Shown: positions 41,186 to 60,662 of the stretch, one piece after another
Numbering within the stretch: the first letter of the stretch is position 1
Layout: each line of letters starts with the position of its first letter
Origin: Escherichia phage phiWec188
Sequence record: LC739537.1
Strand: one strand, 5' to 3'
Length of the DNA stretch: 64,000 bases
Notes under the pieces: generated by a model
The model's input: only the letters and a program-made list of their open reading frames with translations
What the model was told of the DNA's origin: nothing
The model's database searches: none
Made by a program: the position numbers and the translations under genes

Positions 41186-41325
41186 CGTCCGTTACCATTC
41201 AATTGATCACGTAGCTTTTCTGCATCCCGTTTCTGTGGAAACGTGGCAACAGAGACATTGAACTCATTAACAACAGAAAAGGACTTATCCAGATTTTCAC
41301 GGATAGTAAAAGGTTTCTTGCTCAT
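41182..41325 (-). CDS. small ORF (47 aa)
   Basis: GGAGGGAG RBS; ATGA overlaps at both ends. Confidence 0.4.
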   Translation of the reverse strand: MSKKPFTIRENLDKSFSVVNEFNVSVATFPQKRDAEKLRDQLNGNGR

Positions 41326-41675
41326 AATCTCCCTCCATCTTTAAGACGACTCTTAACCCAGTGCAGACGATCTGGATCTGTGTGTTGTGAAGCATTTTCC
41401 GCATCCAGTAAATAAGACTTTCTTCCGAACGGATATGTTTCACATAGCTCTGCTTCAATAAACTGATTATACATCTCTTTCATAGTATCTTCGATTAAAT
41501 ACCAGTCACCTTCTGGAAGGTCTAAATCATACAACCAATACTCAAGATTGCCACACAAGCCTACAGAAGAGCTAAACACGTCTTCCATAACAAGGCCCGT
41601 CTCATCTCGATTTTCAGCCCAAGATAACCAAGCCTGATAAAAATCTAAAAGCAGTTTACTTGATGCAATCTTCAT
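41322..41675 (-). CDS. family-A small protein, paralog 1 of 9 (117 aa)
   Basis: shares FYxxWLxWAE...GLC...YPFG...H..(D/N)..RL.WVK.RL pattern with eight other genes; AGGAGAG RBS. Confidence 0.55.
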   Translation of the reverse strand: MKIASSKLLLDFYQAWLSWAENRDETGLVMEDVFSSSVGLCGNLEYWLYDLDLPEGDWYLIEDTMKEMYNQFIEAELCETYPFGRKSYLLDAENASQHTDPDRLHWVKSRLKDGGRL

Positions 41676-41677
41676 AC

Positions 41678-41863
41678 TCACTCTCCTACACTTTCTGGTG
41701 TGCCATCCCAAGCACCTAAGACTTCTTTCAGGTGTGCACGGGGTTCTTTAAAATACTCTTCCATTTTATCCAGAAGATCGTCTGTGTTTGGGCTGTATCC
41801 CAACATCCCACGTAAAACTCTTTCTTCTTGCAAGACCAACCATCTATGATAGCTTCGAATCAT
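41678..41863 (-). CDS. hypothetical protein (61 aa)
   Basis: GGAGGAATATT RBS at internal ATG. Confidence 0.4.
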   Translation of the reverse strand: MIRSYHRWLVLQEERVLRGMLGYSPNTDDLLDKMEEYFKEPRAHLKEVLGAWDGTPESVGE

Positions 41864-42278
41864 AATATTCCTCCAGGAGTTTCTCAATTCTCTGAACGGT
41901 CTTAGTATCCCAATAAACCTTCTTAAAGTCAAGTGTTCCGTGTGCATTTCTTTTTGTTTCGAAGTAATAACCACCTTCGCGCTCCAAGCGATCACGGATC
42001 ACTTCTATAAGATGATTTTTAGAGTTTTTTGTCAAGCAATAGTCATACTCTCCTTTTAAGAGATCTATAGAAGGTTGACGGTTATCTCCAACCTGGGAAA
42101 TCTTCCAGCTAACCAGCGATCCTTGGATACCAACATCTGTCTGCTTCACAGAGAAGCCTTTTGAACCCCAGCCTCCCAATGTGACCATTGTTAGCGGTTC
42201 TCCTGTTAGAGAGCAGCTAAGGGTGTCATTACGTGGTCCACCTAAAGTGGAAAACCATTTGAAAATCTTCTTAAACAT
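41844..42278 (-). CDS. hypothetical protein (144 aa)
   Basis: GAGAGGAGCAT RBS at internal ATG. Confidence 0.5.
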   Translation of the reverse strand: MFKKIFKWFSTLGGPRNDTLSCSLTGEPLTMVTLGGWGSKGFSVKQTDVGIQGSLVSWKISQVGDNRQPSIDLLKGEYDYCLTKNSKNHLIEVIRDRLEREGGYYFETKRNAHGTLDFKKVYWDTKTVQRIEKLLEEYYDSKLS

Positions 42279-42339
42279 TTTATGCTCCTCTCGTTCAACA
42301 TGCACAAACAATAACACCCTCCGAAGAGGGTGTCAATGA

Positions 42340-42549
42340 TTACTCGATCACAAAAAACGTAGCATTCAAACGTCTGAATGTCGCAGGGCTATATCCGTGA
42401 TCACACTCTTCAATGAACTGATCTGTAGTCTGATCGTAACTATAATACTGATCATTTTGGAAATGGAAGGACGCACAGAACAAATCATCTCCTACAGTCC
42501 ACACTGCCACAAAGTTCTTACCGAACGGATAACCTTCAACTGCTTTCAT
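42340..42549 (-). CDS. hypothetical protein (69 aa)
   Basis: AGAGGAGGGAAA RBS. Confidence 0.5.
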   Translation of the reverse strand: MKAVEGYPFGKNFVAVWTVGDDLFCASFHFQNDQYYSYDQTTDQFIEECDHGYSPATFRRLNATFFVIE

Positions 42550-42560
42550 TTTCCCTCCTC

Positions 42561-42830
42561 TTACCAAGAAACATACATAGAGTAAACAAGATCATTACAG
42601 TCTGTCGAGAACGTAGCACTGCAACCTTGAGATCTTAATTTGTCACAAATCCCGCGTACAATCGAAGCTTGTAGTTCTTTACCTTGCGGTAGACCTAAAG
42701 CTTTCACTGGGTGTTGAATCTGTATGCTGTAGTAACCCTCTTCGGCTGCTGTTGTGATTAAGGTTTTTGCTCGTTGGATATACTCAAAGTTCACAGAGTC
42801 TGCCAAAGCGTGTAAAGAATATGCGTCCAT
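42561..42830 (-). CDS. hypothetical protein (89 aa)
   Basis: GAGGAGG RBS. Confidence 0.5.
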   Translation of the reverse strand: MDAYSLHALADSVNFEYIQRAKTLITTAAEEGYYSIQIQHPVKALGLPQGKELQASIVRGICDKLRSQGCSATFSTDCNDLVYSMYVSW

Positions 42831-42839
42831 GTTACCTCC

Positions 42840-43175
42840 TCAAGAACGATCGAGTTTCATTAAAAATACAATCATAGCTGCACGCAGGGGCTTATCGTCT
42901 CCACGGGACGGTACACCTTCTGTTTTCGCAAGCCAACCGCGAGGAAAACCATCTTCCCCTGTTACAGGACTGATACAAATCCTGTGTTTTACTATGATAG
43001 CCCAAGCATCTGCTGGATCATTGCAGTAATCATACCAAGTGTAATTGCCGTTGCAGTCATTTCCCACTGATCGTCCATCTGCATTGTGCGGATAACCTAA
43101 AGGCTTGACACCGTGGACTGCTGCAAACACACGCTTGTTGATTTCAAAATCACTCATTACTCCATATTCTGTCAT
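42840..43175 (-). CDS. NinX/DUF2591-like protein (111 aa)
   Basis: pattern ...FEINKRVFAA..G...DGRSVG...W.DYCNDPADAWAII...I...P resembles phage NinX family as I recall it. Confidence 0.35.
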   Translation of the reverse strand: MTEYGVMSDFEINKRVFAAVHGVKPLGYPHNADGRSVGNDCNGNYTWYDYCNDPADAWAIIVKHRICISPVTGEDGFPRGWLAKTEGVPSRGDDKPLRAAMIVFLMKLDRS

Positions 43176-43501
43176 GTTTTCTCCTTGTTTTTGGATACTG
43201 GAAGGATGTTGATCATAACTACACCGTTATAATCATAAGTATCGTTAATTTGAGTCTCTACTTCCCGAATATCATCCAGAGTGGGAGGCCAATTTGTAAA
43301 TTGTACATCAATATTCCCCACACCCAGACTCTTACCCTCCCTCGGCCTGTAGTTGTACACAAAAACCGTATTGTAGGAGAGTTTTTGATGTTTGTTACGC
43401 TTCTTAAAAGTGCGGTCTAAGGCGTAGATGCTTCCTATGACACATACCGCTACAGCAACAACCACAATGTTAAAATAGAGTTCTTGTAGAATTGCACTCA
43501 T
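43172..43501 (-). CDS. membrane-anchored hypothetical protein (109 aa)
   Basis: AAAGGGGG RBS; N-terminal TM helix. Confidence 0.5.
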   Translation of the reverse strand: MSAILQELYFNIVVVAVAVCVIGSIYALDRTFKKRNKHQKLSYNTVFVYNYRPREGKSLGVGNIDVQFTNWPPTLDDIREVETQINDTYDYNGVVMINILPVSKNKEKT

Positions 43502-43503
43502 TG

Positions 43504-43833
43504 TTATTTACCCCCTTTCAGTTTTGATTTAACCCATGCCAACCGTTCTTTGTTCATATGTTGCGTGCCGTGCTCATAATCCTGCATATAAGCTAAGTCA
43601 CCAAATGGGTACAAGGTGTCTTGGAAATCTTTGAAAAGCATTTCTGCAAATGCTTCGGTAACTTCGTCAATTTCTTTTAATGAAAACCCTTGTTCCAGTA
43701 ACCAGTAAGACAAAGAGTCGCAAAGCCCAACAAGTGTGCTGAAGGGTTTGACATTCTCTCTTTTCGGAGCCACTTCAGCCCAGGCTAACCATGCCTTAAG
43801 AAATTGTTGGATAATCACTTCGTTCTTTGTCAT
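43504..43833 (-). CDS. family-A small protein, paralog 2 of 9 (109 aa)
   Basis: FLKAWLAWAEVAP...VGLC...YPFGD...H.N.ERLAWVKSKL. Confidence 0.55.
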   Translation of the reverse strand: MTKNEVIIQQFLKAWLAWAEVAPKRENVKPFSTLVGLCDSLSYWLLEQGFSLKEIDEVTEAFAEMLFKDFQDTLYPFGDLAYMQDYEHGTQHMNKERLAWVKSKLKGGK

Positions 43834-43841
43834 TTTAGCTC

Positions 43842-44522
43842 CTATTTAATGTTCAGTTTGTTAAGCAGACGTTGAACCGTATAAGGGTGCCATGTGGTAC
43901 TGCCACGAACAGTTTCAATTTTCTCTTCAGTAAAGATCTCTGCGATTCGAGTCAGAGATGCTCCTGCTTTCCTCATTAACGTAACTTTATCACGAAGCTT
44001 CTCGGCATACAAGGTGCTTTTATCATTTTTTCGAGATTGTCTGTAATCTTTACGAGACTCTTTATATTTTGGAGATGCAGATCCTAAGAGAATACCTTTG
44101 CTCTTAGCTACTGCCAAACCTTTTTTGATACGATCTGCCATACCACGTACTTCCTGTTCTGCAAGGACAGATAGAAGCTGAATAACCATCTTGTCTGCAT
44201 CCGGCATGATCGCAATCTTAACGTCAATCATTTCCAAGAGGATTGCTACCGAGGCGTTGTTACGACCTAAACGGTCCACTTTAGCTACCAAAAGCGTTGC
44301 TCCTGTAGCTTTACACATCTCAACAGCCTTGACAAGTTCTTTACGTTGCTTCCAGTCGCCTTTACCTGAATAAAATTCAGAAAACTCTCCGATCACTTCA
44401 GCCTCCGGCACAGATTCCAAGAAATAACGGATATCGTTTTCCTGGCTCTGCATACCATACTGGGCTTCACCTTTCTTCTGTTTAGACAAACGGCTGTAAA
44501 CAACAAACTTTTTCATGATCAA
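43842..44522 (-). CDS. serine recombinase (resolvase/invertase family) (226 aa)
   Basis: N-terminal catalytic domain VVYSRLSKQKKG (YxRxS with Ser nucleophile), DRLGRN motif, C-terminal HTH; GAGGAG RBS. Confidence 0.8.
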   Translation of the reverse strand: MIMKKFVVYSRLSKQKKGEAQYGMQSQENDIRYFLESVPEAEVIGEFSEFYSGKGDWKQRKELVKAVEMCKATGATLLVAKVDRLGRNNASVAILLEMIDVKIAIMPDADKMVIQLLSVLAEQEVRGMADRIKKGLAVAKSKGILLGSASPKYKESRKDYRQSRKNDKSTLYAEKLRDKVTLMRKAGASLTRIAEIFTEEKIETVRGSTTWHPYTVQRLLNKLNIK

Positions 44523-44526
44523 CTCC

Positions 44527-44733
44527 TCAATCGTTATCAGGATTCCATTTTACAAACTTGAAGCAGTTATTGTCAAGGAATTTATTGGCATCTTTTTCCT
44601 GTTTCCAAACGGTGCATTGTTCTTTAAGGGCTATCTGCTCATTCTGCACGTCTGATACCGCATTAGCAAAGAGGATCAGAAATCCAAAAAAGACCAACAT
44701 CAATAACAGATTAAAGAAAGTTTGAAAACTCAT
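44527..44733 (-). CDS. small membrane-anchored protein (68 aa)
   Basis: GGGAGGATG RBS at internal ATG; hydrophobic N-terminus. Confidence 0.45.
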   Translation of the reverse strand: MSFQTFFNLLLMLVFFGFLILFANAVSDVQNEQIALKEQCTVWKQEKDANKFLDNNCFKFVKWNPDND

Positions 44734-44984
44734 ACATCCTCCCATTTGATCCACAGAATCATTTCTTCAACGTAAACCTCTTTACCTTTGTTATTGATGA
44801 AAGTGTATTCTATGAACTCCGCTGTATACTTTTTGTTGTATTGCTCCGCTGCTGGGATCGGACACTTTGTCATACGTGTCTCAACCCATTGACGATGAAT
44901 CGTTGCCTTGTTTTTGGGGTCAAACGGGTGTAAATAGTGCGGTTCTCCCTCTTGACTATGCCCCATTTTATTCTTCTTCGCCAT
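44730..44984 (-). CDS. hypothetical protein (84 aa)
   Basis: GGAGGAGG RBS at internal ATG. Confidence 0.45.
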   Translation of the reverse strand: MAKKNKMGHSQEGEPHYLHPFDPKNKATIHRQWVETRMTKCPIPAAEQYNKKYTAEFIEYTFINNKGKEVYVEEMILWIKWEDV

Positions 44985-45312
44985 GCTGCACCTCCTCCAG
45001 ACGGTCATACACCCAAGCAAGACGATCGAAGTTTTTGTGTTGGGTGCCGGACTTCTTCTCAATCCAATAACAAGGAATCCAACCTGACAGATCCCACTCG
45101 CCATCGAACGGATAGTTCCATTCTAAACCTTCCGCTTCAAACTGCTCTACCATTTCATCAGAGAGGGAAAGATACAAATCTTGGTCTTCCCCGCAATACA
45201 CTTCCACTGCATGACACAAACCGCAAGCTTTGATGTTTTCGTTCGGATCTTGGCTCATAGCCTGATCCAACCACCACTCATAAAATTCCAGTAAAGCTTC
45301 ACTTGACCTCAT
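44968..45312 (-). CDS. family-A small protein, paralog 3 of 9 (114 aa)
   Basis: LLEFYEWWLDQAM...CGLC...YPFDG...H.N.DRLAWVYDRL. Confidence 0.5.
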   Translation of the reverse strand: MRSSEALLEFYEWWLDQAMSQDPNENIKACGLCHAVEVYCGEDQDLYLSLSDEMVEQFEAEGLEWNYPFDGEWDLSGWIPCYWIEKKSGTQHKNFDRLAWVYDRLEEVQHGEEE

Positions 45313-45685
45313 TTTCTTCCCCTCCCCCTTTTCCAATAAGCGGCGAAGCCGCGATCATCGACTTATAGACAACTTCGGCTGTTCGGGTTAGCCCCGTCCA
45401 GTCCTTCGCTGCCTCCAACATTTCTGGGGTAGGCTCTTTCGGGACCAAGACATACCCTTCTGGGATACACATTCCACTCGCTTTCTTTTCAGCTTCTTCC
45501 GACATAACTTGCCACACTCCGTAGCTGCAATTCTCGAACAAACAATAGAGTTCAGATCCTTCATCATCCACGACAATGAAACAGTTCTCATCTGCTACTT
45601 TGGCGTTGTAAATCCGACCTATGGTCAAATAGTCTCGGACATTAATAAACTTAGAGGCAAGAAACTTCACACGAATGTTTTTCAT
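45299..45685 (-). CDS. hypothetical protein (128 aa)
   Basis: GGAG RBS. Confidence 0.5.
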   Translation of the reverse strand: MKNIRVKFLASKFINVRDYLTIGRIYNAKVADENCFIVVDDEGSELYCLFENCSYGVWQVMSEEAEKKASGMCIPEGYVLVPKEPTPEMLEAAKDWTGLTRTAEVVYKSMIAASPLIGKGGGEENEVK

Positions 45686-45921
45686 TTCTTAAACTCCGAA
45701 AAGCAACCCAAAGAGATGACCCCGCCATTATAGACGATAGCAAACTGGCACCCTGTCTTTGTGTCTGTGATGATGTAATCTAAAGCCCCAGTCATGCCAG
45801 TTTGAACAAAGCGATCCTTGGTTACAACTTTTGAGTCCGAGAAGCCGTTAACTTCCGGCACAGTGTCTGCCATAACAGCAGGAGTCACCAGAAACAATGC
45901 GATCAGTAATGCCTTTTTCAT
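45682..45921 (-). CDS. small secreted protein with signal peptide (79 aa)
   Basis: MKKALLIALFLVTPAVMA|DT signal peptide; TGGAGGG RBS. Confidence 0.55.
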   Translation of the reverse strand: MKKALLIALFLVTPAVMADTVPEVNGFSDSKVVTKDRFVQTGMTGALDYIITDTKTGCQFAIVYNGGVISLGCFSEFKK

Positions 45922-45942
45922 AAACCCTCCAGTAACCTTTGG

Positions 45943-46257
45943 TTAGCCTTGAAATGAATTGCGACGACCAATACGGGCACAGCGATCACCTTCATAAGAG
46001 GTGAAATCCAAACTCACTCGGAAGCCAGGGTGGGTATCAGAGATCCCCACATTCTTCACCCACATCTCGAAACTGCCGATATGTAAGGTCATAATGTTTA
46101 CATACCATTCCAGCGTCACTTCTGTGCCGTCTACACCTGTGATGTAAAACTCACGAGCGAAATGGGTGTCGTGCTTCTCTTTCTGACGCTCATACTTAGC
46201 GATTGCACCTTTCTCAACAGCCGCTTTCAGGATCACTTCTAATTCTTCTATTTGCAT
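45943..46257 (-). CDS. hypothetical protein (104 aa)
   Basis: AGAGGAGAGAG RBS. Confidence 0.5.
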   Translation of the reverse strand: MQIEELEVILKAAVEKGAIAKYERQKEKHDTHFAREFYITGVDGTEVTLEWYVNIMTLHIGSFEMWVKNVGISDTHPGFRVSLDFTSYEGDRCARIGRRNSFQG

Positions 46258-46312
46258 GTTCTCTCTCCTCTTGTTGTTGATGCAATCACTATAATATGTC
46301 TGACACTCTCTG

Positions 46313-46528
46313 TCAAATGTTTTCTGCTTCCAGTACTACTCTCTGGATCTGCACATCATCAATGTTTGCAAGACAAGTCCCTAAGATAAGACCTGCTCGG
46401 AAAGGGGCTTGGAATTTGGACGAAGCTCCCACTCGGACAGAGTATTCCACACCACACATGGTGTAATCTACACGATACATATTCAAACCCATGAACATCA
46501 GTTCTTCTTCCGACTCTTCGATTTGCAT
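46313..46528 (-). CDS. hypothetical protein (71 aa)
   Basis: AAGAGGAGAT RBS. Confidence 0.5.
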   Translation of the reverse strand: MQIEESEEELMFMGLNMYRVDYTMCGVEYSVRVGASSKFQAPFRAGLILGTCLANIDDVQIQRVVLEAENI

Positions 46529-46540
46529 TTTTATCTCCTC

Positions 46541-47095
46541 TTAGTTCCAACTTATAATGATGTGTTTGATAATCCCAAAAATACTGTGCTCTGCGTTTGC
46601 CAACGTTACATCCAAACCTTTTGCACGTAACATTGTAGCTACAACATTTACCCCTCTTTTCTGTTCACTTATCTGCTCATAAGAAGAAGGGCTATTGCAC
46701 AAACCAAAACTGGAAGGTTCAAAGTATTTTTCAAACTTCCCTTGCTCCGCACAATCTTCGATCTCTAACAGAACGGAGTCTACCATCTCTGTAAAATGAG
46801 AATTTGCTTGCAGTGCTTTATTACGCAGTTTATCACGTAAACTTCCCACATACGCTTCCTGACCTTCTTCCTGCTCTTCTTCGTAAAAAGGATGAAGTTC
46901 AGCCCACTCCCAAACATCTCCCTCTAAAGCAAACGTGGTGTTGTAGTTGAAGAAGGTGCAACGTGGAAGTTCCCCGTTGAAAGAGTCCTTCAGCAAAATG
47001 TATTTCTTACCATTTGCGTGGAAGAGTTCTCCTTTGATAACCTTGCCTCTCTGGATATCGCTGTTGGTGGAACGGGTGCAGATAAACTGTTTCAT
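46541..47095 (-). CDS. hypothetical protein (184 aa)
   Basis: AGAGGAGAAAA RBS. Confidence 0.55.
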   Translation of the reverse strand: MKQFICTRSTNSDIQRGKVIKGELFHANGKKYILLKDSFNGELPRCTFFNYNTTFALEGDVWEWAELHPFYEEEQEEGQEAYVGSLRDKLRNKALQANSHFTEMVDSVLLEIEDCAEQGKFEKYFEPSSFGLCNSPSSYEQISEQKRGVNVVATMLRAKGLDVTLANAEHSIFGIIKHIIISWN

Positions 47096-47149
47096 GATTT
47101 TCTCCTCTCTGTTTCGATGAGATGATTATGCCAAAGACAGATCCTTCTG

Positions 47150-47470
47150 TCAACCAATTATTTCTTCTGCTACACGTTCTTTTACCCAGTTCACACGATC
47201 CACATTCAAATGACAACGGCTTTTTTCCGCTTCTAAGGTGTACTTTCCAAAATTACTATTGAAAGGCAACACCATAACCAAATCTTTGTGGTAGAACTGC
47301 TCATGCATTTCATCCAGTACAGGTTCGTATCGTTCGCTTTCTCCCATATCGTAAAAATCATAGAGGTTCGTGCACAAACCTGTGCAACGGGTGAACGGTT
47401 TACCTTCAGGAGCACCAGCTTCCAACCATGCCAAATACGTGCGGTAAAATGTTAATAGTTCTTCGCTCAT
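47150..47470 (-). CDS. family-A small protein, paralog 4 of 9 (106 aa)
   Basis: LLTFYRTYLAWLEAGAPEGKPF...TGLCTNL...LPFN...HLNVDRVNWVKERV; AAGGAGAG RBS. Confidence 0.55.
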   Translation of the reverse strand: MSEELLTFYRTYLAWLEAGAPEGKPFTRCTGLCTNLYDFYDMGESERYEPVLDEMHEQFYHKDLVMVLPFNSNFGKYTLEAEKSRCHLNVDRVNWVKERVAEEIIG

Positions 47471-47679
47471 TTCCACTCTCCTTCGTGATAGTAAACCTCA
47501 AAAGAATAGTAAGTGAACATGCTCATTGTAACACCTCCCATTTCTGGATCAACGGAAGTGTTGTTATATATGTCAACTACTGCCTGACCCGCTGCTTTGG
47601 CATGTGCTGCCGAATCACAGGCACAAACATCTTTCTCCCACGGAAACTTGCCATCATACTTAAGACGGACAATCCACAT
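47467..47679 (-). CDS. hypothetical protein (70 aa)
   Basis: GGAGGAATAAG RBS. Confidence 0.5.
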   Translation of the reverse strand: MWIVRLKYDGKFPWEKDVCACDSAAHAKAAGQAVVDIYNNTSVDPEMGGVTMSMFTYYSFEVYYHEGEWK

Positions 47680-47681
47680 GC

Positions 47682-47909
47682 TTATTCCTCCATCTCAAAC
47701 CATTCAGGGAACACTTTACGGAAGACACGGGTTGTTTCCAAAAGGAATTCCAATTCTTTTTCCAGATCTGCGTTCCAATCATGCACTTTAACATTGATCG
47801 CCAATGCACTTGCACGACGACTCAATTCTTGACAGATCGGGTCGCGCAACACTATTGAATCATAAAACTGACAAACAGCTTCAAGTTCATACCAATTATA
47901 AGCAGCCAT
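47682..47909 (-). CDS. hypothetical protein (75 aa)
   Basis: AGAGGAGGATG RBS. Confidence 0.5.
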   Translation of the reverse strand: MAAYNWYELEAVCQFYDSIVLRDPICQELSRRASALAINVKVHDWNADLEKELEFLLETTRVFRKVFPEWFEMEE

Positions 47910-48235
47910 TATTCATCCTCCTCTGCAATACGATCTCTCACCCAATTAATCCTGTCCACGTTCAGGTGACAGGCATCTGCGTCTGACTCTAAAACATATG
48001 CATCATAGTTCTCATTGAAAGGGAGTTCTTGACTCAACCCTTTATAGTGGAACTGCGCGTGCATTTCATCTGATAAGGTTGTTATAATAGGATTGTAATT
48101 ATCTCTGTGCACGTAATCGAACAAATTGGCACACAAACCACAATTTGGCAGAAACGGTCTACCGTAAGGGGCACCATCTTCGATCCAGGCAAGGTACTTT
48201 TTGTAAAACTTCATCAGATCTTTACTTGTTTTCAT
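47909..48235 (-). CDS. family-A small protein, paralog 5 of 9 (108 aa)
   Basis: LMKFYKKYLAWIEDGAPYGRPF...CGLCANL...LPFN...HLNVDRINWVRDRI. Confidence 0.55.
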   Translation of the reverse strand: MKTSKDLMKFYKKYLAWIEDGAPYGRPFLPNCGLCANLFDYVHRDNYNPIITTLSDEMHAQFHYKGLSQELPFNENYDAYVLESDADACHLNVDRINWVRDRIAEEDE

Positions 48236-48473: not shown

Positions 48474-48474
48474 G

Positions 48475-48819: not shown

Positions 48820-48879
48820 TTTTCTCTCCTTATTGTCTTGATGTGGTAAGCATACCATACAGAAATCAGGTGTCAAGCT

Positions 48880-50108: not shown

Positions 50109-50112
50109 AGTA

Positions 50113-50559
50113 TTAAACCTGAACCAAGGAATCACGCCAATCTTTACTGCTACCCACGCCAAGGAAGTAATAGTCTGAGGTACTAACAGAAGTACGCCAA
50201 GCATGAATCCAATCAGGAACCTCCGGCTTATGGCTGTAGCCATAGCGATCACCACTTGAGTCTGTTGCGATGTAATTGACAAACTCTGGCACATCTAAAG
50301 TTTCACCTTGATACTCTACACGCTTGAAGCCATCTTCCACTTGTTCCTCCCCTTCCACCAGAAGGGCAAGAAGCTGAATATGTGGACAAGTGAAGTCTTG
50401 CCCTGGATAACGGGAGCGAATATCTGTTAACAGTGCGATCACTGCCTTCGACAGGGTTTCATAATCTTCATACTTCACATATGTCCCTTCTGTCGGATCA
50501 TCCGAACACATAAGCCAAGCGTCGTTGGGATTTACACCATAATGTTTCACTTTACTCAT
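50113..50559 (-). CDS. hypothetical protein (148 aa)
   Basis: GTAGGAGGTTTAA RBS. Confidence 0.55.
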   Translation of the reverse strand: MSKVKHYGVNPNDAWLMCSDDPTEGTYVKYEDYETLSKAVIALLTDIRSRYPGQDFTCPHIQLLALLVEGEEQVEDGFKRVEYQGETLDVPEFVNYIATDSSGDRYGYSHKPEVPDWIHAWRTSVSTSDYYFLGVGSSKDWRDSLVQV

Positions 50560-50640
50560 TTAAACCTCCTACTCGTACATTAAGAAACCTAAAATAATAA
50601 TCAGGACAACGAAAATAATAGTCTCTATCATACCACATTC

Positions 50641-50853
50641 TCACTTATTCATAGAAGCAGGAAGAATCGAGTGACACTTCCTGCACACTTTCACTTTAAC
50701 AAGATTATCACTACATTCTGCGTAAATCAAGGCTTCTTTCAACTTATTCCCACATGAACAATACCCTGTTAGGTCCAGAGGAACATCAAAAAGCCCATAA
50801 TCACTCTCATATTGCTTTTCACACAACGAAATAACTCTTGTAAAGTAAGACAT
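50641..50853 (-). CDS. small Cys-rich protein (70 aa)
   Basis: GAAGGATAGG RBS; CSCG...CRKCH. Confidence 0.5.
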   Translation of the reverse strand: MSYFTRVISLCEKQYESDYGLFDVPLDLTGYCSCGNKLKEALIYAECSDNLVKVKVCRKCHSILPASMNK

Positions 50854-50856
50854 TTC

Positions 50857-51012
50857 CTATCCTTCTGCTTGATTAATTAATTCTTTACACCTTAAGGCAA
50901 ACTCTCGTGTAGACTGGAAGTGGACGTAAGCTGTTGACCACTTTTGGAGTTCTTCTCTACCAAGGGCTATCAACTCTTTATCTGTAAGTTTCATAGCTTC
51001 TTGTACTGTCAT
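50857..51012 (-). CDS. small ORF (51 aa)
   Basis: GAGGAATAACGCG RBS; below ORF-track cutoff. Confidence 0.35.
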   Translation of the reverse strand: MTVQEAMKLTDKELIALGREELQKWSTAYVHFQSTREFALRCKELINQAEG

Positions 51013-51016
51013 CGCG

Positions 51017-51238
51017 TTATTCCTCGATCACTTCCACATCCCAAGAGAAGAATACATAGTCGCAACCTTCCCAAACATCATCTTCCAGGATCTCACAACC
51101 TTCCACTTTAGCCATCTCCTCTTGGGAAACGAAGAATGTTTGCAAATCATCGCTGAAAAGGTGTGCTTCAACAACAAAAGGAAGTTGAACATTTTCAAAA
51201 CCTACGTAACCTGTAACATCGATAACTTTAATCTTCAT
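51017..51238 (-). CDS. hypothetical acidic protein (73 aa)
   Basis: AAAGGAGAACC RBS. Confidence 0.5.
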   Translation of the reverse strand: MKIKVIDVTGYVGFENVQLPFVVEAHLFSDDLQTFFVSQEEMAKVEGCEILEDDVWEGCDYVFFSWDVEVIEE

Positions 51239-51429
51239 GAGGGTTCTCCTTTATAAAGTAAACCTCTTAGTTCACATTCCGCAACCAATAGACGGTTAGC
51301 TTGATTGTCCATAGACACGTCTATCTCCACACTCCAAGCATTAATATACACTTCGTTGATCTTTGCGTCAAGCATTTGTGCAACTAAAGCTACCGCTCCG
51401 GCGTACTCCAGTTTAATCTCTATAATCAT
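51235..51429 (-). CDS. hypothetical protein (64 aa)
   Basis: AAGGGA RBS at second ATG. Confidence 0.45.
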   Translation of the reverse strand: MIIEIKLEYAGAVALVAQMLDAKINEVYINAWSVEIDVSMDNQANRLLVAECELRGLLYKGEPS

Positions 51430-51713
51430 TTGAGATGATCCCTTACCCATTGGATACGGACAGCATTGAGATGAGAACCATCTTCCTTATACTCTCTCGC
51501 GTAATCATCCCAATCTTTATTGAACGGGAGTTCTGGGTCCAACCCCGCAGCTTCGAACTGCTTTGACATTTCATATAGCAAATCATCATCACAATAACCG
51601 AAGAAATAGAGATTAGTGCATAAACCCCATTCACGGCGGAAAGGATTGCCGTCTGGCGCTCCCGCGTCCACCCAATCTGCGTAAGCTTGATAGAACTCTC
51701 GTAATGTTTTCAT
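51426..51713 (-). CDS. family-A small protein, paralog 6 of 9 (95 aa)
   Basis: LREFYQAYADWVDAGAPDGNPF...WGLCTNL...LPFN...HLNAVRIQWVRDHL. Confidence 0.55.
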   Translation of the reverse strand: MKTLREFYQAYADWVDAGAPDGNPFRREWGLCTNLYFFGYCDDDLLYEMSKQFEAAGLDPELPFNKDWDDYAREYKEDGSHLNAVRIQWVRDHLK

Positions 51714-52066
51714 CGTTTAATGTTCTCCATCAAAAATTTGATAGCCTCTGCCTGGTCTTGACGGTGATCCAGGTACTCTTTATCCCAATTTATATTGTAA
51801 CCGCCCTGAATACAAGGGTGAATGACCCCACGAATCAGATCGTAGTTATCAATCAGACGGATAACCTTAATATCATCGATCAGAATCCTCCAACCTGGCG
51901 GCAAATCTACAGGAACGCCGAGAAACAATGGCAGATCCTTCGCAGGTTCTTGATAAAGAGCGATCAGGTCTTCCAGGGTTTCAATTAAAAGCTGTGCAGT
52001 GACCGATGGATTTGAGAGGCTCATATAAGCATCACGTAGGTTTTCGTAGTAAGCTAATGTTTTCAT
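51710..52066 (-). CDS. hypothetical protein (118 aa)
   Basis: AAAGGAGAAAACC RBS at internal ATG. Confidence 0.5.
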   Translation of the reverse strand: MKTLAYYENLRDAYMSLSNPSVTAQLLIETLEDLIALYQEPAKDLPLFLGVPVDLPPGWRILIDDIKVIRLIDNYDLIRGVIHPCIQGGYNINWDKEYLDHRQDQAEAIKFLMENIKR

Positions 52067-52374
52067 TGGTTTTCTCCTTTTTCTAAGTGGTTTCTTACCC
52101 AAGCAATACGATTAAGGTCAAGGTGCATGTTGTTTTGGTCCAAACATAAATCAAAAGCTTCTTCCCCGAAAGGATAGGCAGCAGAGAGTCCCGCATCTTC
52201 AAACTGATCGGCAAGTTGACGCTCTAAGCGAGTAAGTATCGAGATATTGTCAGCGCCAGTGTAATATCGAAGATTGCTACACAGCCCTACACCACGGGAG
52301 AAAGGTCGGTAAGGCGGAGCGCCATTATCTAACCAATCTGCGTATGCCTTGTAATACCCTTCTAATGTTTTCAT
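52063..52374 (-). CDS. family-A small protein, paralog 7 of 9 (103 aa)
   Basis: LEGYYKAYADWLDNGAPPYRPF...VGLCSNL...YPFG...HLDLNRIAWVRNHL; AAGGGGTGG RBS. Confidence 0.55.
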   Translation of the reverse strand: MKTLEGYYKAYADWLDNGAPPYRPFSRGVGLCSNLRYYTGADNISILTRLERQLADQFEDAGLSAAYPFGEEAFDLCLDQNNMHLDLNRIAWVRNHLEKGENQ

Positions 52375-52529
52375 AACCACCCCTTATCTTGATAACCTTT
52401 AGAAAACCCTTCTTCCCACTCTTGAAACTTTTCAGGATGTTTATTGGGATCGTAAGGATTGTGGCGGCAAAACATACCGAATTTATAACCCTGTGCGTAG
52501 CCTTTATCGAATGCGTTCTTACTCTCCAT
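52371..52529 (-). CDS. small ORF (52 aa)
   Basis: GAGGAGAGAACA RBS; stop overlaps next ATG (ATGA). Confidence 0.4.
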   Translation of the reverse strand: MESKNAFDKGYAQGYKFGMFCRHNPYDPNKHPEKFQEWEEGFSKGYQDKGWL

Positions 52530-52541
52530 TGTTCTCTCCTC

Positions 52542-52814
52542 TTATTCAACGTTCCAGAAAACACCACGTTTGTCTGTAATGTCTATATGATACTCCTCCC
52601 ACATCTTAGTTACAAGAGGTCTTTCCACATAACCATGAAAATAAACTTCAGAATGCACCCCGTAAGCTGTGTAATTGTCAACAGTCCCTTCTACCTTGAA
52701 GATCACCATGTCCCCACCTAAAAATCTTTCAAAGACCAAGGTGAAACAGTCGAACTTAACAACGTCTCCCTCGAAGAGGGAGATATCTTTCACCTTACAG
52801 AAATGTCCGATCAT
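52542..52814 (-). CDS. hypothetical protein (90 aa)
   Basis: AAGGAGAGAAAA RBS. Confidence 0.5.
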   Translation of the reverse strand: MIGHFCKVKDISLFEGDVVKFDCFTLVFERFLGGDMVIFKVEGTVDNYTAYGVHSEVYFHGYVERPLVTKMWEEYHIDITDKRGVFWNVE

Positions 52815-52823
52815 TTTCTCTCC

Positions 52824-53015
52824 TTAATACACATCACCTACAAACCAGATTTCTGGATCGCCATACTGATCCTTCTCGTAAGATTTGTAGACACTACAGC
52901 AATATTTCAAAACACCGTCCACAAGGATTGTTGATCTTTCTTCTGGAATCTCTGTGATCTCCCCTTTACGGGTTTCGAAGATGGTATCACCCTTTTCAAT
53001 CAGTCGGATTTTCAT
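52824..53015 (-). CDS. hypothetical protein (63 aa)
   Basis: GAAGGAGGCATG RBS. Confidence 0.5.
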   Translation of the reverse strand: MKIRLIEKGDTIFETRKGEITEIPEERSTILVDGVLKYCCSVYKSYEKDQYGDPEIWFVGDVY

Positions 53016-53016
53016 A

Positions 53017-53214
53017 TCATGCCTCCTTCAGTGCGATTAGTGCGTTCACCAGATTATCAACACCTTGATCATCCAGTGCAATAACATCAAAGTTAAACCC
53101 TGTATCAGTTGGTACTTTACGTGTTATGGTGTAATAGTCCCCTGCATGACGTTCAACATATGCGTATGGGTAACTGGTGTTCGGATCATGTTTTACGCGA
53201 ATAGATGTTTTCAT
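53017..53214 (-). CDS. hypothetical protein (65 aa)
   Basis: AGAGGAGAACAAAAC RBS. Confidence 0.5.
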   Translation of the reverse strand: MKTSIRVKHDPNTSYPYAYVERHAGDYYTITRKVPTDTGFNFDVIALDDQGVDNLVNALIALKEA

Positions 53215-53684
53215 GTTTTGTTCTCCTCTTTAGTTGCAACACGGAACTTATTAGCTTCTCTCACCTGGAACATGAAGTCTTTCTTCTTCATAATCCCGAT
53301 GGACATTTCATCCAGTTCTTCTGGGTGGATCTGGAGATTACGGCGATCAGACAGGAACCAAGTTTTCTCCCACCAGAAGCGTTGATCCTCTTCTTCGTGA
53401 TACCTGTATGCCTCTTTCTCTTCTTCGGTGAGAAGTTTGAAGCGATTCTTTCCTTCCCAACGCATTGCTGTGTTAAAAGGAATACCGTTATCCCCATTAT
53501 ACACTGCGGAAGTAGGAAGGCAATAGCCAGTTTCTGCGTCGATCATTTGGTAGTGAAATTCACATCCCAGTTCAACGTACTCTAAATCCCCATAAAAATC
53601 ACTGATCAAGAAAGCAATGTAAGTTTCACCATGTTCGGGAACAAATTCTTGCTTTGTCAACATTTCCAGTTTCAAACCTGCCAT
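53211..53684 (-). CDS. hypothetical protein (157 aa)
   Basis: AAAGGAGAAAGC RBS. Confidence 0.55.
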   Translation of the reverse strand: MAGLKLEMLTKQEFVPEHGETYIAFLISDFYGDLEYVELGCEFHYQMIDAETGYCLPTSAVYNGDNGIPFNTAMRWEGKNRFKLLTEEEKEAYRYHEEEDQRFWWEKTWFLSDRRNLQIHPEELDEMSIGIMKKKDFMFQVREANKFRVATKEENKT

Positions 53685-53696
53685 TGCTTTCTCCTT

Positions 53697-53930
53697 TTAG
53701 TCGAACCAGTTATATTCGGAAGGGTAACGCGCATAGTTTGGCTTATACCCCAGCCTTTTCATCTTAACAGACATACGAGTGAAGCCAAAGGTTTTTTTGC
53801 CCTTAGACATAAACTTCTTCCCACTCTTCATTGGCTTCTTAGGATCTTTGATCGTCTGGTTTAACGCTCGCGCAAGCCACAAAGTGTATGCGCTCGGCAC
53901 TTGATTAACTTTCATCTTGTTACCTTTCAT
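53697..53930 (-). CDS. small lysine-rich basic protein (77 aa)
   Basis: GGAGGTGAAATA RBS at internal ATG; K-rich, possible nucleic-acid binder. Confidence 0.45.
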   Translation of the reverse strand: MKGNKMKVNQVPSAYTLWLARALNQTIKDPKKPMKSGKKFMSKGKKTFGFTRMSVKMKRLGYKPNYARYPSEYNWFD

Positions 53931-54229
53931 TATTTCACCTCCGACCAATCAACAGTGATCCACTCATATGCTCCATCAGAGTCCATTTCTCTATAAACAA
54001 CAAGCCCACGCTCACGAAGAATTGCTACTGCTTCATCCATCCACTTCACTTGATTGGAGATCGCCTCTGGATGGATAGGCGAATTAGCCAAACCAAAATC
54101 AGAGGGCGTGAAATTCTTTGAGAAGTTTCCCGCCCGTGCTTCAGAAAAACAGGTTTCAATCACCTCTTCAATAGGGAATTGGAAGGAAGCCTCTTTTGCA
54201 ATACGGCGCAGTTGATCAGTCAAATTCAT
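53930..54229 (-). CDS. hypothetical protein (99 aa)
   Basis: GAGAGGAGAAATG RBS. Confidence 0.5.
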   Translation of the reverse strand: MNLTDQLRRIAKEASFQFPIEEVIETCFSEARAGNFSKNFTPSDFGLANSPIHPEAISNQVKWMDEAVAILRERGLVVYREMDSDGAYEWITVDWSEVK

Positions 54230-54294
54230 TTCATTTCTCCTCTCATTTGTGTATGCAATGATTATCTACCAACGTGATCCTTATGTCAAGCTAT

Positions 54295-54807
54295 TTATTC
54301 AAAATAAACTTTAACTTGTGCCGTGCTGTAGCGATTGTAAATCTCAACCACGGCTTTAGCGTTATCTTCTTTATAGGATTGTGCCAGATCTTCCGCATCT
54401 CGGATATTTCCGGCAACACCCACGAGAACAAGATCCACCATTACAAGATATTTTTTATCTTCTGGACTCTCTTGAGAAGGCTCTTGTACTGGCTCTTCCT
54501 TTGGTTCTGGTGGCAAACCAACCTCTGCCTCAACATAAGAGTCAAACCAAGTGATATCGTTAAAATGCTTTAACTCATGTTTGGACAGCAACATACCACA
54601 ATCAACGAAAGCACCTGCATTAGCTTCAAAGACATGTCCTTCAAATGTTTGGAACTTAACCACATCCCCTTTTTCTGTTGTCTCCAACACCAGGAAGTGT
54701 TTTGGACCCAGCAGATCTGAAATCTTACGGTTCAGATTGACAGCTTCACGGAACGCATTGTACTCTTTTGTATTTTTGAATTTATAGGAATGCCCTTGAA
54801 TAAACAT
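54295..54807 (-). CDS. hypothetical protein, paralog pair C member 1 (170 aa)
   Basis: AGAGGAGACTATT RBS; shares N-terminal MF..G..Y.F, Pro-rich linker and C-terminal ...VEIYNRYSTAQVKVYFE with next gene. Confidence 0.55.
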   Translation of the reverse strand: MFIQGHSYKFKNTKEYNAFREAVNLNRKISDLLGPKHFLVLETTEKGDVVKFQTFEGHVFEANAGAFVDCGMLLSKHELKHFNDITWFDSYVEAEVGLPPEPKEEPVQEPSQESPEDKKYLVMVDLVLVGVAGNIRDAEDLAQSYKEDNAKAVVEIYNRYSTAQVKVYFE

Positions 54808-54819
54808 AATAGTCTCCTC

Positions 54820-55338
54820 TTAGTCAAATATCACATTACTTACGAGTTTCGCTGTGCTACGCAGAGTATAAATCTCCACAAGCTTCCCTGGACTCTCTTT
54901 CTTCGCTTTCGTGGCTCTTTCTTGCGCCTCTGAAAAAGATGATACAGTATGCACTACTACGTAGTCAACAATAACTGCAAACTTTTTAGGCACAATATCT
55001 GCATCAGGGCGATCGTCGTGTGCGGAAACCTCCTTGCCTGGCTGCGGTGCCAGCGGCGGCAAGCCCACCATTAACAACGGACCTCCGTCAAAGAAATATC
55101 CGATCTCATCGTGCCCAATAAGGAAGCGATCCATTTGAGCATCACCTACTCCCTGATCCCAGAACAGCTTCTTATCTTCTACGAAGATGATAAGAGATAG
55201 GACATTCCCGTAAGCGTCTGTTTTGACTACTTCAAACCAAAACTCTCCGATCGCTTCAGCCAACTTTTTAGAAATTGATTGAAACAACTCTTGGTACGTG
55301 CCTTGTCTGAAACGATAGATATTACCTGGTTTAAACAT
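54820..55338 (-). CDS. hypothetical protein, paralog pair C member 2 (172 aa)
   Basis: AGAGGAGACAC RBS; C-terminus ...VEIYTLRSTAKLVSNVIFD. Confidence 0.55.
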   Translation of the reverse strand: MFKPGNIYRFRQGTYQELFQSISKKLAEAIGEFWFEVVKTDAYGNVLSLIIFVEDKKLFWDQGVGDAQMDRFLIGHDEIGYFFDGGPLLMVGLPPLAPQPGKEVSAHDDRPDADIVPKKFAVIVDYVVVHTVSSFSEAQERATKAKKESPGKLVEIYTLRSTAKLVSNVIFD

Positions 55339-55360
55339 TAGTGTCTCCTCTTATGTTAAA

Positions 55361-55819
55361 TTATTGTTCTACTTCACGCAACCACGCTAAAGCCTCTTCT
55401 GGAGATTTATCGAAGTCGTTGAGCAGTTCCTGCTCCAACTCCTCTTTCATTTCATTCAGCACTTGTAGTTGACGTGCCTTTTTCCACAAGGCTACACGAT
55501 AATCAACACCTTGTGGTGCTTCTTCTGCCACTTTTACATTACCTGTCGGGCAGCGAGGAAGATAGTCTTCAATATCTTCCAAGGCACGGCGATAATTGGG
55601 GTCCATGTAGTTCACACGAACACGATTACATTCTAACAAAGTGGCACGGAACACTTCATAACGTGTTTCGGATAGAATGTGTTTCACACAGACAGCACCA
55701 GTATCTTCTGAAATTACACTATACACTTCCAGTAGGCTGGAGTTTCTCTTGACATAATCTGTAACACATTGCACATATGCTCCCAATATTGTGGAAGCTC
55801 TCACTGGTTTTTCGCTCAT
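55361..55819 (-). CDS. hypothetical protein (152 aa)
   Basis: GGGGAGGTAGAAA RBS. Confidence 0.55.
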   Translation of the reverse strand: MSEKPVRASTILGAYVQCVTDYVKRNSSLLEVYSVISEDTGAVCVKHILSETRYEVFRATLLECNRVRVNYMDPNYRRALEDIEDYLPRCPTGNVKVAEEAPQGVDYRVALWKKARQLQVLNEMKEELEQELLNDFDKSPEEALAWLREVEQ

Positions 55820-56055
55820 TTTCTACCTCCCCATAATGCCACCATTTTATTAAAGATGGAAGCGCGTCGTGCACGAGATGCTAACATACGATTGGCTTCT
55901 TCGTAGCCATCGAACAAACGATCTGTCAATACCAACGCCAGTGTCTTCTCTTGCAGAGACTGGCAATTATGTTCAGGACGACAGTCGTGCCCTGCATCGA
56001 AGTACAGATTGTTCAGATAATTGTTTGCTCTCTCATTCTGCTTTGCAGTGATCAC
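55816..56055 (-). CDS. hypothetical protein (79 aa), probable GTG start
   Basis: AAGGAGGGATT RBS before GTG. Confidence 0.45.
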   Translation of the reverse strand: MITAKQNERANNYLNNLYFDAGHDCRPEHNCQSLQEKTLALVLTDRLFDGYEEANRMLASRARRASIFNKMVALWGGRK

Positions 56056-56064
56056 AATCCCTCC

Positions 56065-56295
56065 TTAGTGAACAATTTCATATTCATGAGGAAGGAAAAC
56101 ATAATCTTCCCCTTCACCTGCATCTTCTTCATCCCAGAAGAAACCTGGTATCTCAATCATCTTCGAAAAGCGCACATGGGCCAGCCCACTATACCCTATT
56201 TGTGCATTCAGCACAACGGGTAACTCTGCACCAATCAGACCTACATACCCACAAGCGGTTTCAATACGAATTTTCATACGTTTCATGTTATGCAT
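56065..56295 (-). CDS. hypothetical protein (76 aa)
   Basis: GGAGAA RBS. Confidence 0.45.
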   Translation of the reverse strand: MHNMKRMKIRIETACGYVGLIGAELPVVLNAQIGYSGLAHVRFSKMIEIPGFFWDEEDAGEGEDYVFLPHEYEIVH

Positions 56296-56497
56296 CTTTC
56301 ATATTCTCCACGAAGTGACGAGCAACAGGATTCCCGTAGAAATATTCATTGATGAAATCGATCACACACGTTTCACTGCCTGTCACAACGGACGGTGCGA
56401 AGTTTCGGAACTGCACGAGTACACGACTTGCGTTAGCAAGGGTGTGCACACGATCAGTGTTAGCTAAATACAAGGATACAGTTTTCATATTTGACAT
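56288..56497 (-). CDS. hypothetical protein (69 aa)
   Basis: TGAGGAGATTGAA RBS. Confidence 0.45.
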   Translation of the reverse strand: MSNMKTVSLYLANTDRVHTLANASRVLVQFRNFAPSVVTGSETCVIDFINEYFYGNPVARHFVENMKDA

Positions 56498-56556
56498 TTC
56501 AATCTCCTCATTGGCTATCTGTTATGCGCGGTATGCAAACCACTATACAGACATTT

Positions 56557-56919
56557 TTATTCAATGCAAGCATTATTTACATCTTCGATACGATCTTCCA
56601 CCCATTGCACACGCAGTTTGTTGAGATGACATTTTCTGTTTTCACATTCTTCCTCGTAGTCGAAGAAGTCAGTATTGAAAGGTGTGCTTTTAGACAACCC
56701 TGCATAGATAAACTGTATCATCATTTCATCACCTAAAGCTTCACGCATCTCCCAGAACATATCCACATCAGCCCCATGCTTCGGATATAATACTTCCCAT
56801 GCAAAATTGCCTAAACATACGCACAAGCCATTCGCTGTGTTCGCCAACTCACTACGGTTAGCCATCCAATTCTTATAGAACATCAGAAGAGTATCACTAC
56901 TCAAGGGAATATTTTTCAT
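56557..56919 (-). CDS. family-A small protein, paralog 8 of 9 (120 aa)
   Basis: LLMFYKNWMAN...NGLCVCL...TPFN...HLNKLRVQWVEDRI. Confidence 0.55.
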   Translation of the reverse strand: MKNIPLSSDTLLMFYKNWMANRSELANTANGLCVCLGNFAWEVLYPKHGADVDMFWEMREALGDEMMIQFIYAGLSKSTPFNTDFFDYEEECENRKCHLNKLRVQWVEDRIEDVNNACIE

Positions 56920-56920
56920 A

Positions 56921-57301
56921 TCAGGCTCCTTTACGATTATGCAAACAATCTTTCACTCGTTCTTGCACCCACTCTACACGAAGCTTGTTTTCATGCGCTC
57001 TGCTGTGGTTATACTCTCGCACATATTCTTCGTAGTTCACATTAAAGGGAACACTGACAGACAATCCTGCGCAACGGAATTGTTTCTTCATTTCTTTTAA
57101 TGTTGCATCACTTATGGCACAAAGCTGTTTTGCCTGTTCCTCACTGAAATTACGGTCCCACATCTCATCCCAGATAAAGGTATCCAAGCATACACATAAC
57201 CCATTCCTTGTGCGCTCTTTGGTATGATGATCAGCAAGCCAACTTTCATAGAAGGCTAACAACATTGGACTACTCAACGGAACATTTTTACTCTCTTGCA
57301 T
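56921..57301 (-). CDS. family-A small protein, paralog 9 of 9 (126 aa)
   Basis: LLAFYESWLAD...NGLCVCL...VPFN...HENKLRVEWVQERV; AGAGGAGATT RBS at internal ATG. Confidence 0.55.
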   Translation of the reverse strand: MQESKNVPLSSPMLLAFYESWLADHHTKERTRNGLCVCLDTFIWDEMWDRNFSEEQAKQLCAISDATLKEMKKQFRCAGLSVSVPFNVNYEEYVREYNHSRAHENKLRVEWVQERVKDCLHNRKGA

Positions 57302-59302: not shown

Positions 59303-59344
59303 GGTGTTGTCCTTTGTTTCGTTTCGTTGTTTGCTGCCAGTGAG

Positions 59345-59380: not shown

Positions 59381-59409
59381 GGATAGCGCATTATTTACAT
59401 TTCTTTACG

Positions 59410-59433: not shown

Positions 59434-59441
59434 GTACAATC

Positions 59442-60660: not shown

Positions 60661-60662
60661 TT

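Follow-up and report, generated by a model that had tools for sequence, protein, structure and literature searches.

Nine diverged copies of an N4 gp3-like small-protein family in the accessory gene array of an Escherichia phage

Introduction

Why would a single phage genome keep nine diverged versions of one small protein? The question is raised by a stretch of 64,000 nucleotides from Escherichia phage phiWec188 (record LC739537.1), referred to here as the window, in which nine minus-strand genes (W1 to W9, Table 1) are scattered through a ~25-kb accessory array of small genes, nearly all of them unannotatable. A first-pass annotation made from the letters alone had described these genes as one paralogous family, with a motif that it could place in no family, and had regarded them as fast-evolving products of repeated duplication with a probable role in host interaction or anti-defence. 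The present analysis places them as a 7-10-copy expansion of a large, catalogued family, which constitutes an experimental lead and not a demonstrated new system. The explanation preferred here, to which a probability of about 0.4 is given, is that the nine proteins may form a repertoire of early-expressed binding modules on one scaffold, each with a different host or defence target.

The sequence of the window matches that of Escherichia phage phiWec190 (LC739539) with 100% identity. This phage is a myovirus of the Stephanstirmvirinae with a genome of ~150 kb, and it was recently proposed as a member of the genus "Wecvirus" in a report where the family goes unmentioned (PMC12695924). The linear record LC739539 begins and ends at about window position 42764, in the middle of the small-gene array; since the window spans these ends, the linearisation point of that record differs from that of the sequence from which the window was taken.

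Results

Nine intact genes of one family

The listing of open reading frames (ORFs) of the window contains all nine genes on the minus strand, with the coordinates that had been reported for them. Each starts with ATG, and each is preceded within 25 nt by a purine-rich stretch resembling a Shine-Dalgarno (SD) sequence, clearest as GGAG or AGGAG and weak for W6. In eight cases the length of the coding sequence is identical to that of the independent annotation in OR584014 (94.6% identity), the mismatch being W8, with 363 nt versus 366 nt there. The proteins were aligned end to end by using MAFFT, with G-L-C, P-F, H, R and W-V invariant, so that the architecture described earlier stands. A hidden Markov model (HMM) built from the nine proteins and searched, with all filters off, against the 744 six-frame ORFs of the window picked out the nine genes alone, with E values of 1e-34 to 1e-46, the next-best ORF having an E value of 1.2. 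All-against-all BLASTP likewise gave one nine-member cluster, the sole paralog family of the window with more than two members.

No additional fragments or pseudogenes of the family were found by tblastn in the window, and the rest of the phage genome (~87 kb) contained no further copies, which gives a total of nine. A conserved partner gene or a duplicated multi-gene cassette was sought around the nine copies and none was found. Pairwise identity among the paralogs ranges from 21 to 51%, in agreement with the strong divergence originally noted. The closest pairs had been given as W4/W5, W6/W7 and W8/W9; the first indeed tops the list (51%), but W5/W6 (45%) is as close as W6/W7 (44%), and W8/W9 follows with 40%.

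A catalogued phage family

All nine proteins match phrog_2510, a family of unknown function, with E values of 2.1e-18 to 1.1e-30 over ~100 of their 95-126 residues, and most of them also match its sister families phrog_6418 and phrog_27059, again of unknown function. In the curated libraries, Pfam returned for the nine proteins nothing except one sub-threshold chance match, NCBIfam nothing above cutoff, and PADLOC only two chance-level matches (E ~0.007-0.01, 13-14 bits); the Ead_Ea22 domain (PF13935) was matched by none of them. The Protein Data Bank (PDB) held no relative by sequence or by fold, including among the solved anti-defence proteins (Ocr, ArdA, Acb2, Tad1/2, Gad1/2 and anti-CRISPRs). 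The family is also distinct from Atd1, named elsewhere as the anti-defence gene typical of Phapecoctavirus (PMC11724313).

When 1.84 billion cluster representatives (50% identity) were searched with the family profile, 2,207 matched at E ≤1e-3 and 1,453 at E ≤1e-10, and the reciprocal search returned the N4 gp3-type, RSB1 ORF5 and prophage members. The source names of the members are all "hypothetical" or "uncharacterized". No relatives with a name or an annotated domain came from a second, word-indexed search that started from a 73-sequence alignment, and Pfam and NCBIfam searches of longer fusion proteins gave only unknown PHROG modules, with no function to borrow. Literature searches on phrog_2510, N4 gp3, the phAPEC8/rV5 paralogs, Stephanstirmvirinae transcriptomes and CRISPR interference screens with N4 turned up nothing about the family. 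On these searches the nine belong to a phage-restricted, "N4-gp3-like" family (phrog_2510 and related PHROGs) that is catalogued yet uncharacterised. The earlier failure to place the motif was justified with respect to curated functional families (Pfam, NCBIfam and PADLOC) and to the PDB, but the family itself is catalogued, occurs phage-wide and includes the gp3 of N4. As no member has an assigned function, membership is uninformative on mechanism.

Distribution and domain arrangements

A tblastn search with W5 gave 678 matching places, spread over 262 phage records. The family is represented by a single copy in N4-like podoviruses, in T7-like Ralstonia phages and Burkholderia phage JG068, in Rhizobium phages, in Dhillonvirus-type siphoviruses and in a Xanthomonas jumbo phage, among others, while rV5-like myoviruses carry 1-4 copies and Stephanstirmvirinae 2-8. 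Orthologs of W5 that are 80-90% identical are present in 63 phage records; close orthologs are found in only 5 records for the W2 type and in 8 for the W9 type. Some records that closely match this region or family have host labels that look doubtful, unless the phages are unusually polyvalent, namely Pseudomonas phage PsgM04F, Acinetobacter phage vB_AbaM_ABPW7 and Campylobacter phage A110a. Against a 17-kb query of the region, PsgM04F (OR584014) is 94.6% identical over 99% and ABPW7 89% over 31%, and A110a enters only through a 146-kb record whose matches to the family are of the kind seen in rV5-like coliphages.

Phage N4 itself contributes a member, its genuine gp3 (ABK54374 / A0MZ95_BPN4), whose annotated gene is matched directly by W2 in tblastn (E 8e-5) and lies between two sets of early products, gp1/gp2 and gp15/gp16 (PMC4496689). 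ORF5 of the T7-like Ralstonia phage RSB1 lies in the class-I early region, just upstream of a gp0.7-like kinase, and a P22-like prophage of E. coli carries a standalone member in its early-left accessory block beside Ead_Ea22, DUF551 and DUF2303 genes. In each context examined (N4-like, T7-like RSB1, lambdoid prophage and the present myoviruses) the gene is found in an early or accessory block. Among 72,556 plasmids, searched by tblastn with the single paralog W5, there was one match, and the neighbouring Phd/Doc, dUTPase, PAPS-reductase-family and DUF968 genes suggest that it is a phage-plasmid. As far as these searches reach, the family is confined to phages of Proteobacteria, across unrelated strategies of transcription and replication.

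Tandem fusions of two or three family domains make up ~16% of the 150 best relatives, for example gp03 of Pectobacterium phage PP2. Together with the adjacent genes W8 and W9, they hint that the family unit may work as a dimer. In some homologs the domain is fused to N- or C-terminal mosaic modules of the Ea22 type. Burkholderia phage BcepSaruman encodes a three-domain protein of the family, and in two relatives of ~400 aa two family domains flank an unrelated middle domain of ~130 aa.

Predicted fold and conserved positions

W5, the copy nearest to the family consensus, was modelled with AlphaFold2 from a 33-sequence alignment, giving a predicted local distance difference test (pLDDT) value of 92.3 and a predicted template modelling (pTM) score of 0.85. 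The model contains five helices, at residues 5-19, 34-42, 50-64, 77-85 and 93-107. For the first domain of PP2 gp03, only 23% identical, the same helix order is predicted with pLDDT ~95; in a model of this protein made to see if its two domains form a fixed pseudo-dimer (pTM 0.61), the second domain has a pLDDT of ~45 because the alignment covered only the first domain. Models of family members in BFVD, themselves predictions, superpose with template modelling scores of 0.74-0.85. A shared five-helix fold is confidently predicted for the family, with no solved neighbour.

Conservation was measured over 202 domains from 177 diverse proteins, in the residue numbering of W5. Arg95 and the pair Pro72-Phe73 are 100% conserved, Cys35 99%, and Gly33, Leu34, Phe10, Phe62 and Trp98 at least 95%, the motif Trp standing at 95%; His90 reaches 81%, being otherwise Tyr, Trp or Phe, and Asn92 also 81%, being otherwise Asp. 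The resulting motif set, G-L-C, P-F and H/aromatic-x-N/D-x-x-R-x-x-W-V, is present in all nine proteins. Conserved positions form one stripe per helix with i/i+3/i+4 spacing (in helix 1, Leu7, Phe10, Tyr11, Tyr14 and Trp17), beyond which there is a small conserved polar set of Cys35, Glu57, Gln61, His90, Asn92 and Arg95. About 70% of positions are variable, the connector between helices 2 and 3 being the most variable and rich in insertions and deletions. Within the nine, Cys35, His90 and Arg95 are kept exactly, and elsewhere in the conserved set there are only conservative swaps (Tyr/Leu11, Glu/Gln57, Gln/Glu61, Tyr/Phe80 and Asn/Asp92); none of the copies looks degenerate. An enzyme of the Cys-His hydrolase or transferase type does not fit: the Cys is invariant, but position 90 is His in only the 81% given above and is replaced by aromatic residues.

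Old copies under constraint

The number of copies differs among relatives, with nine in phiWec190, nine of a different set in phiWec179, ten in PsgM04F and seven in phAPEC8. A third tandem copy adjoins W8/W9 in PsgM04F and phiWec179 and is missing from phiWec190. W7 has a counterpart in PsgM04F and none in phiWec179, where the best match, only 41% identical, is the ortholog of W5. In phAPEC8 the only close orthologs are those of W4 (98% amino acid identity) and W5 (83%).

Orthologs in PsgM04F and phiWec179 are 88-100% identical, versus 21-51% between paralogs. The ratio of nonsynonymous to synonymous substitution rates (dN/dS), obtained by the Nei-Gojobori method from orthologs in phiWec179, PsgM04F and phAPEC8, is 0.0-0.6 per gene and 0.15-0.22 when pooled. 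For W1 it is 0.13-0.16, at 93-96% identity in PsgM04F and phiWec179; for W5, 0.11-0.13 at a synonymous divergence (dS) of 0.41-0.87; and for W4, 0.12-0.61, a range that comes from very few substitutions. Each copy is under purifying selection and the genes are constrained; the divergence between copies is old. The pooled ratio leaves the description "fast-evolving" in the first-pass annotation unsupported.

In a neighbour-joining distance tree, for which no support values were calculated, the nine fall into four groups at least, {1,2}, {6,7}, {4,5} and {3,8,9}, interleaved with N4 gp3 and with homologs from prophages and siphoviruses. Because of this interleaving with homologs from unrelated phages, duplication within the genome is just one route to the nine, and an origin by horizontal exchange is as possible as one by ancient duplication. 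The paralogy and divergence on which the idea of repeated duplication and diversification was based are real, but duplication is not singled out by them. Between the same two phages dS varies from 0 (W2) to 0.41 (W5); relative to the closest relatives it is 0.41 for W5, 0-0.03 for W2 and W4, and 0.04-0.18 for the others. Such unevenness fits mosaic exchange of individual loci, and for W5 it suggests replacement of the locus through recombination with a more distant allele.

The array and its transcription

The accessory-region setting described at first reading is borne out, a Pfam match being found in only five of the 60 other array proteins (resolvase, DUF7202, NinX, DUF2158 and a weak lyase). 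Between 44.5 and 64 kb there are 64 sigma70-like promoter matches, where 41.7±6.2 are expected, and the 13 best of them, with a perfect TTGACA, are all on the gene strand. In the phAPEC8 record the syntenic array is headed by promoters labelled "host dependent". These promoter-like sequences and the synteny support, without proof, early transcription of the array by the host RNA polymerase (RNAP).

W9 is the first gene of the long array, following an ORF-free gap of 1.45 kb, and the ATG of W8 lies 1 nt past the W9 stop, the SD of W8 (AAGGAG) being inside the 3' end of W9.

Several other features of the array deserve record (Table 1). At its head, each repeat unit consists of the promoter-like sequence followed by a conserved GC-rich hairpin-forming segment (…ACGTAGGGCGGCAATGGTGCCGC…) and stands in front of a small gene, and some of these genes are followed by a terminator-like hairpin; promoters found with PHIRE/MEME are annotated at the syntenic place in phAPEC8. 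The whole looks like a battery of immediate-early promoter-gene units heading the array. The gap, which extends from the terminator after the gene at 58883-59302 to W9, has A/C-rich tracts (CAACAACCAACAACAAAC…) and a tandem 31-nt repeat at 58382-58443. A counterpart of ~1.5 kb without annotated coding sequence occupies the same place in phAPEC8 and phiWec179. The stretch may be regulatory, contain an origin or give rise to an untranslated RNA. Rfam gave no RNA gene in 36-64 kb, the gap included, and no transfer RNA genes were found in the window. A serine recombinase gene lies mid-array, directly upstream of W2 in transcription order. Three further paralog pairs indicate that gene duplication is general in the array, beyond the nine-member family.

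Table 1. The nine family genes and other features of the array, in window positions; E values are for the nine-protein HMM and for phrog_2510
Feature	Position	Strand	Length (aa)	HMM E	phrog_2510 E	Remarks
W1	41322..41675	-	117	5.9e-38	1.3e-23	pI (isoelectric point) 4.4
W2	43504..43833	-	109	1.1e-34	1.6e-21	most divergent copy, 22-39% identity to others
W3	44968..45312	-	114	8.5e-38	1.4e-22	most acidic copy: pI 4.1, 27 D+E vs 7 K+R
W4	47150..47470	-	106	1.4e-40	1.1e-30	
W5	47909..48235	-	108	4.3e-46		nearest family consensus; modelled copy
W6	51426..51713	-	95	9e-38	2.3e-27	shortest copy; dN/dS 0-0.02
W7	52063..52374	-	103	1.9e-37		in PsgM04F, absent from phiWec179
W8	56557..56919	-	120	1.3e-36		long helix 2-helix 3 insert; downstream partner of the adjacent pair W8/W9
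W9	56921..57301	-	126	9.7e-36		sole near-neutral copy, pI 6.5
Serine recombinase/DNA invertase	43842-44522	-	226			Pfam Resolvase E 1.8e-16; phrog_125
Paralog pair	46541-47095 / 53930-54229					BLASTP E 1.5e-10
Paralog pair	51017-51238 / 56065-56295					BLASTP E 4.7e-8
Paralog pair	54295-54807 / 54820-55338		~170			tandem; BLASTP E 4.3e-12
Gap	57400-58880					1.45 kb without convincing ORF on either strand
Repeat units	59340-63560	-				5-6 units; near-consensus sigma70-like promoter TTGACA-N16/17-TAATAT/TATTAT

Discussion

A possible repertoire of binding modules

The preferred explanation is that one conserved scaffold would present diversified surfaces to different partners, and that nine versions would be kept because each engages a different host protein. 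The most plausible targets in Proteobacteria would be polymorphic effectors of defence or stress, or proteins subject to takeover, and the phage proteins would act early in infection, through stoichiometric binding and not through catalysis. Support may be drawn from the standalone character of the proteins, the conserved core with a variable surface, the constrained and old copies, and a set that differs between related phages. The occurrence of the family in phages with unrelated transcription and replication strategies, always in early or accessory blocks (N4, T7-like, lambdoid), indicates a host-directed rather than a phage-intrinsic role. An anti-defence role is plausible, and the suggestion of host interaction or anti-defence with which this analysis started is a reasonable one, drawn from the context.

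Several points weigh on the other side. No homolog of known function points to any target, and PADLOC, like every curated library, is silent. The purifying selection seen among orthologs, and the 80-90% identity of W5 across its 63 records, do not look like an arms race at the sequence level. The acidity of the proteins (median pI 4.8) is not distinctive when compared with that of the neighbours (median 5.2), and the early timing is read from promoter-like sequences and synteny. Finally, the conserved Cys and Arg, with Glu, Gln, His, Asn and Tyr, could equally be a ligand-binding or catalytic pocket and not a structural network.

This last point leads to the main alternative, which is nevertheless unlikely. 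The polar cluster of Cys35, Arg95, His/Tyr/Trp90, Glu57, Gln61, Asn92 and Tyr11/Tyr80 would form a small-molecule site, and the proteins would be sponges or small enzymes for a nucleotide-type metabolite or an immune signal, with paralogs differing in ligand preference. The phage sponges Acb2, Tad1 and Tad2 are oligomers of ~100 aa, and the frequency of tandem fusions is what would be expected if the unit works as an oligomer. The near-complete conservation of the Cys and Arg, the presence of His or an aromatic residue at position 90, the sharing of helix faces between the conserved polar residues and core residues, and the retention of the full conserved set in all nine copies agree with such a site. 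The variability of His90 speaks against a Cys-His dyad, however, and the constancy of the pocket across the paralogs speaks against diversification of ligands.

A role within the phage itself is a still weaker candidate. The proteins would be cofactors or regulators of phage transcription, of replication or of the early-to-middle switch, the paralogs being matched to different promoters or proteins of the phage. In the N4 genome gp3 directly adjoins gp1 and gp2, which are cofactors of N4 RNAPII (PMC4496689), and across Phapecoctavirus and relatives the conservation of W4 and W5 is like that of core genes. The phages that carry the family have no phage machinery in common, however, since they use a virion RNAP (N4-like), a T7-type RNAP (RSB1) or host RNAP only (lambdoid prophages and myoviruses); moreover, most copies are dispensable between close relatives, and in prophages the domain is a swappable module of Ea22-like mosaic accessory proteins.

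It is improbable that the nine are DNA-mimic anti-restriction proteins like Ocr or ArdA, which would occupy the DNA-binding sites of restriction-modification or related nucleases. Eight of the nine are acidic (pI 4.1-5.4), with a net charge of about -20 for W3; they are predicted to be all-helical at ~100 aa, and the RSB1 member holds the class-I early position where T7 has gene 0.3. Acidity was set aside as a signal of DNA mimicry, being uninformative because unrelated neighbouring proteins are similarly acidic; W9 is itself close to neutral, and across the wider family the 90th percentile of pI is 7.8. Among the PDB structures, neither Ocr and ArdA nor any other mimic matched in fold. The leading regions of plasmids commonly carry general anti-restriction genes such as ardA, and the near absence of the family from plasmids bears against this idea as well.

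That the nine are decaying leftovers of duplication without current function, as the highly variable accessory region and the differing copy numbers might suggest, is hardly credible, being contradicted by nine intact genes with start codons and ribosome-binding sites, by the selection data, by the retention of every conserved family residue, and by the finding of no fragments or pseudogenes.

Significance

A bolder form of the repertoire explanation is tentative, with the odds against it: an undescribed fold would be used by phages of Proteobacteria as a general inhibitor scaffold, and the nine would be an arsenal, each neutralising a different immune or stress effector or binding a different immune signal through the Cys/Arg pocket. 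If this were true, the family would parallel, among bacterial viruses, the Bcl-2-like multigene family with which poxviruses evade immunity, and a function would be provided for over 2,000 protein clusters, N4 gp3 and modules of the lambdoid Ea22-like proteins among them.

Whatever the mechanism, a family of 2,207 representatives has neither a Pfam entry nor a solved relative nor a function, though N4, a classic model phage, carries one of its members, and the picture of a fast-evolving orphan is corrected to that of an old and widely shared family. The nine long-diverged copies, each under purifying selection, constitute a natural panel for target finding. A comparison of partners across nine versions of the scaffold in one host would reveal whether they represent a new class of host-takeover or anti-defence proteins.

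Comparison with known systems

The closest known group is phrog_2510 with N4 gp3, which shares with the nine proteins a whole-length profile match, the size, the motif set and the predicted five-helix fold. The difference is one of number, as N4-like, T7-like, Dhillonvirus-type and lambdoid phages have one copy each and phiWec190 has nine.

The Ead/Ea22-like early-left proteins of lambdoid prophages (PF13935; phrog_60, phrog_660 and phrog_3323) are connected to the family through the homologs in which its domain is fused to Ea22-type segments, and through the E. coli prophage in which a standalone member lies directly upstream of the Ead_Ea22 gene. Both groups occupy non-essential early accessory regions. 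The nine proteins, however, have neither Ea22 segments nor the Pfam match, and the domain is a separate one that is only sometimes fused.

Ocr and ArdA are also small, acidic and helical, and one homolog, that of RSB1, has a comparable early genome position, but there is no similarity of sequence or fold, the acidity is undistinctive and the family is nearly absent from plasmids.

As a model of mechanism, the poxvirus Bcl-2-like family (vaccinia A46, A52, B14, K7 and N1) presents itself as a working analogy, since each of its paralogs binds a different host protein of innate immunity. Both cases comprise a small all-helical scaffold with many diverged paralogs per viral genome. The two are unrelated in fold, virus and host, and binding partners are known on the poxvirus side alone; the nine phage proteins could nonetheless follow the same principle, in which one scaffold is retained and each copy is directed to its own partner.

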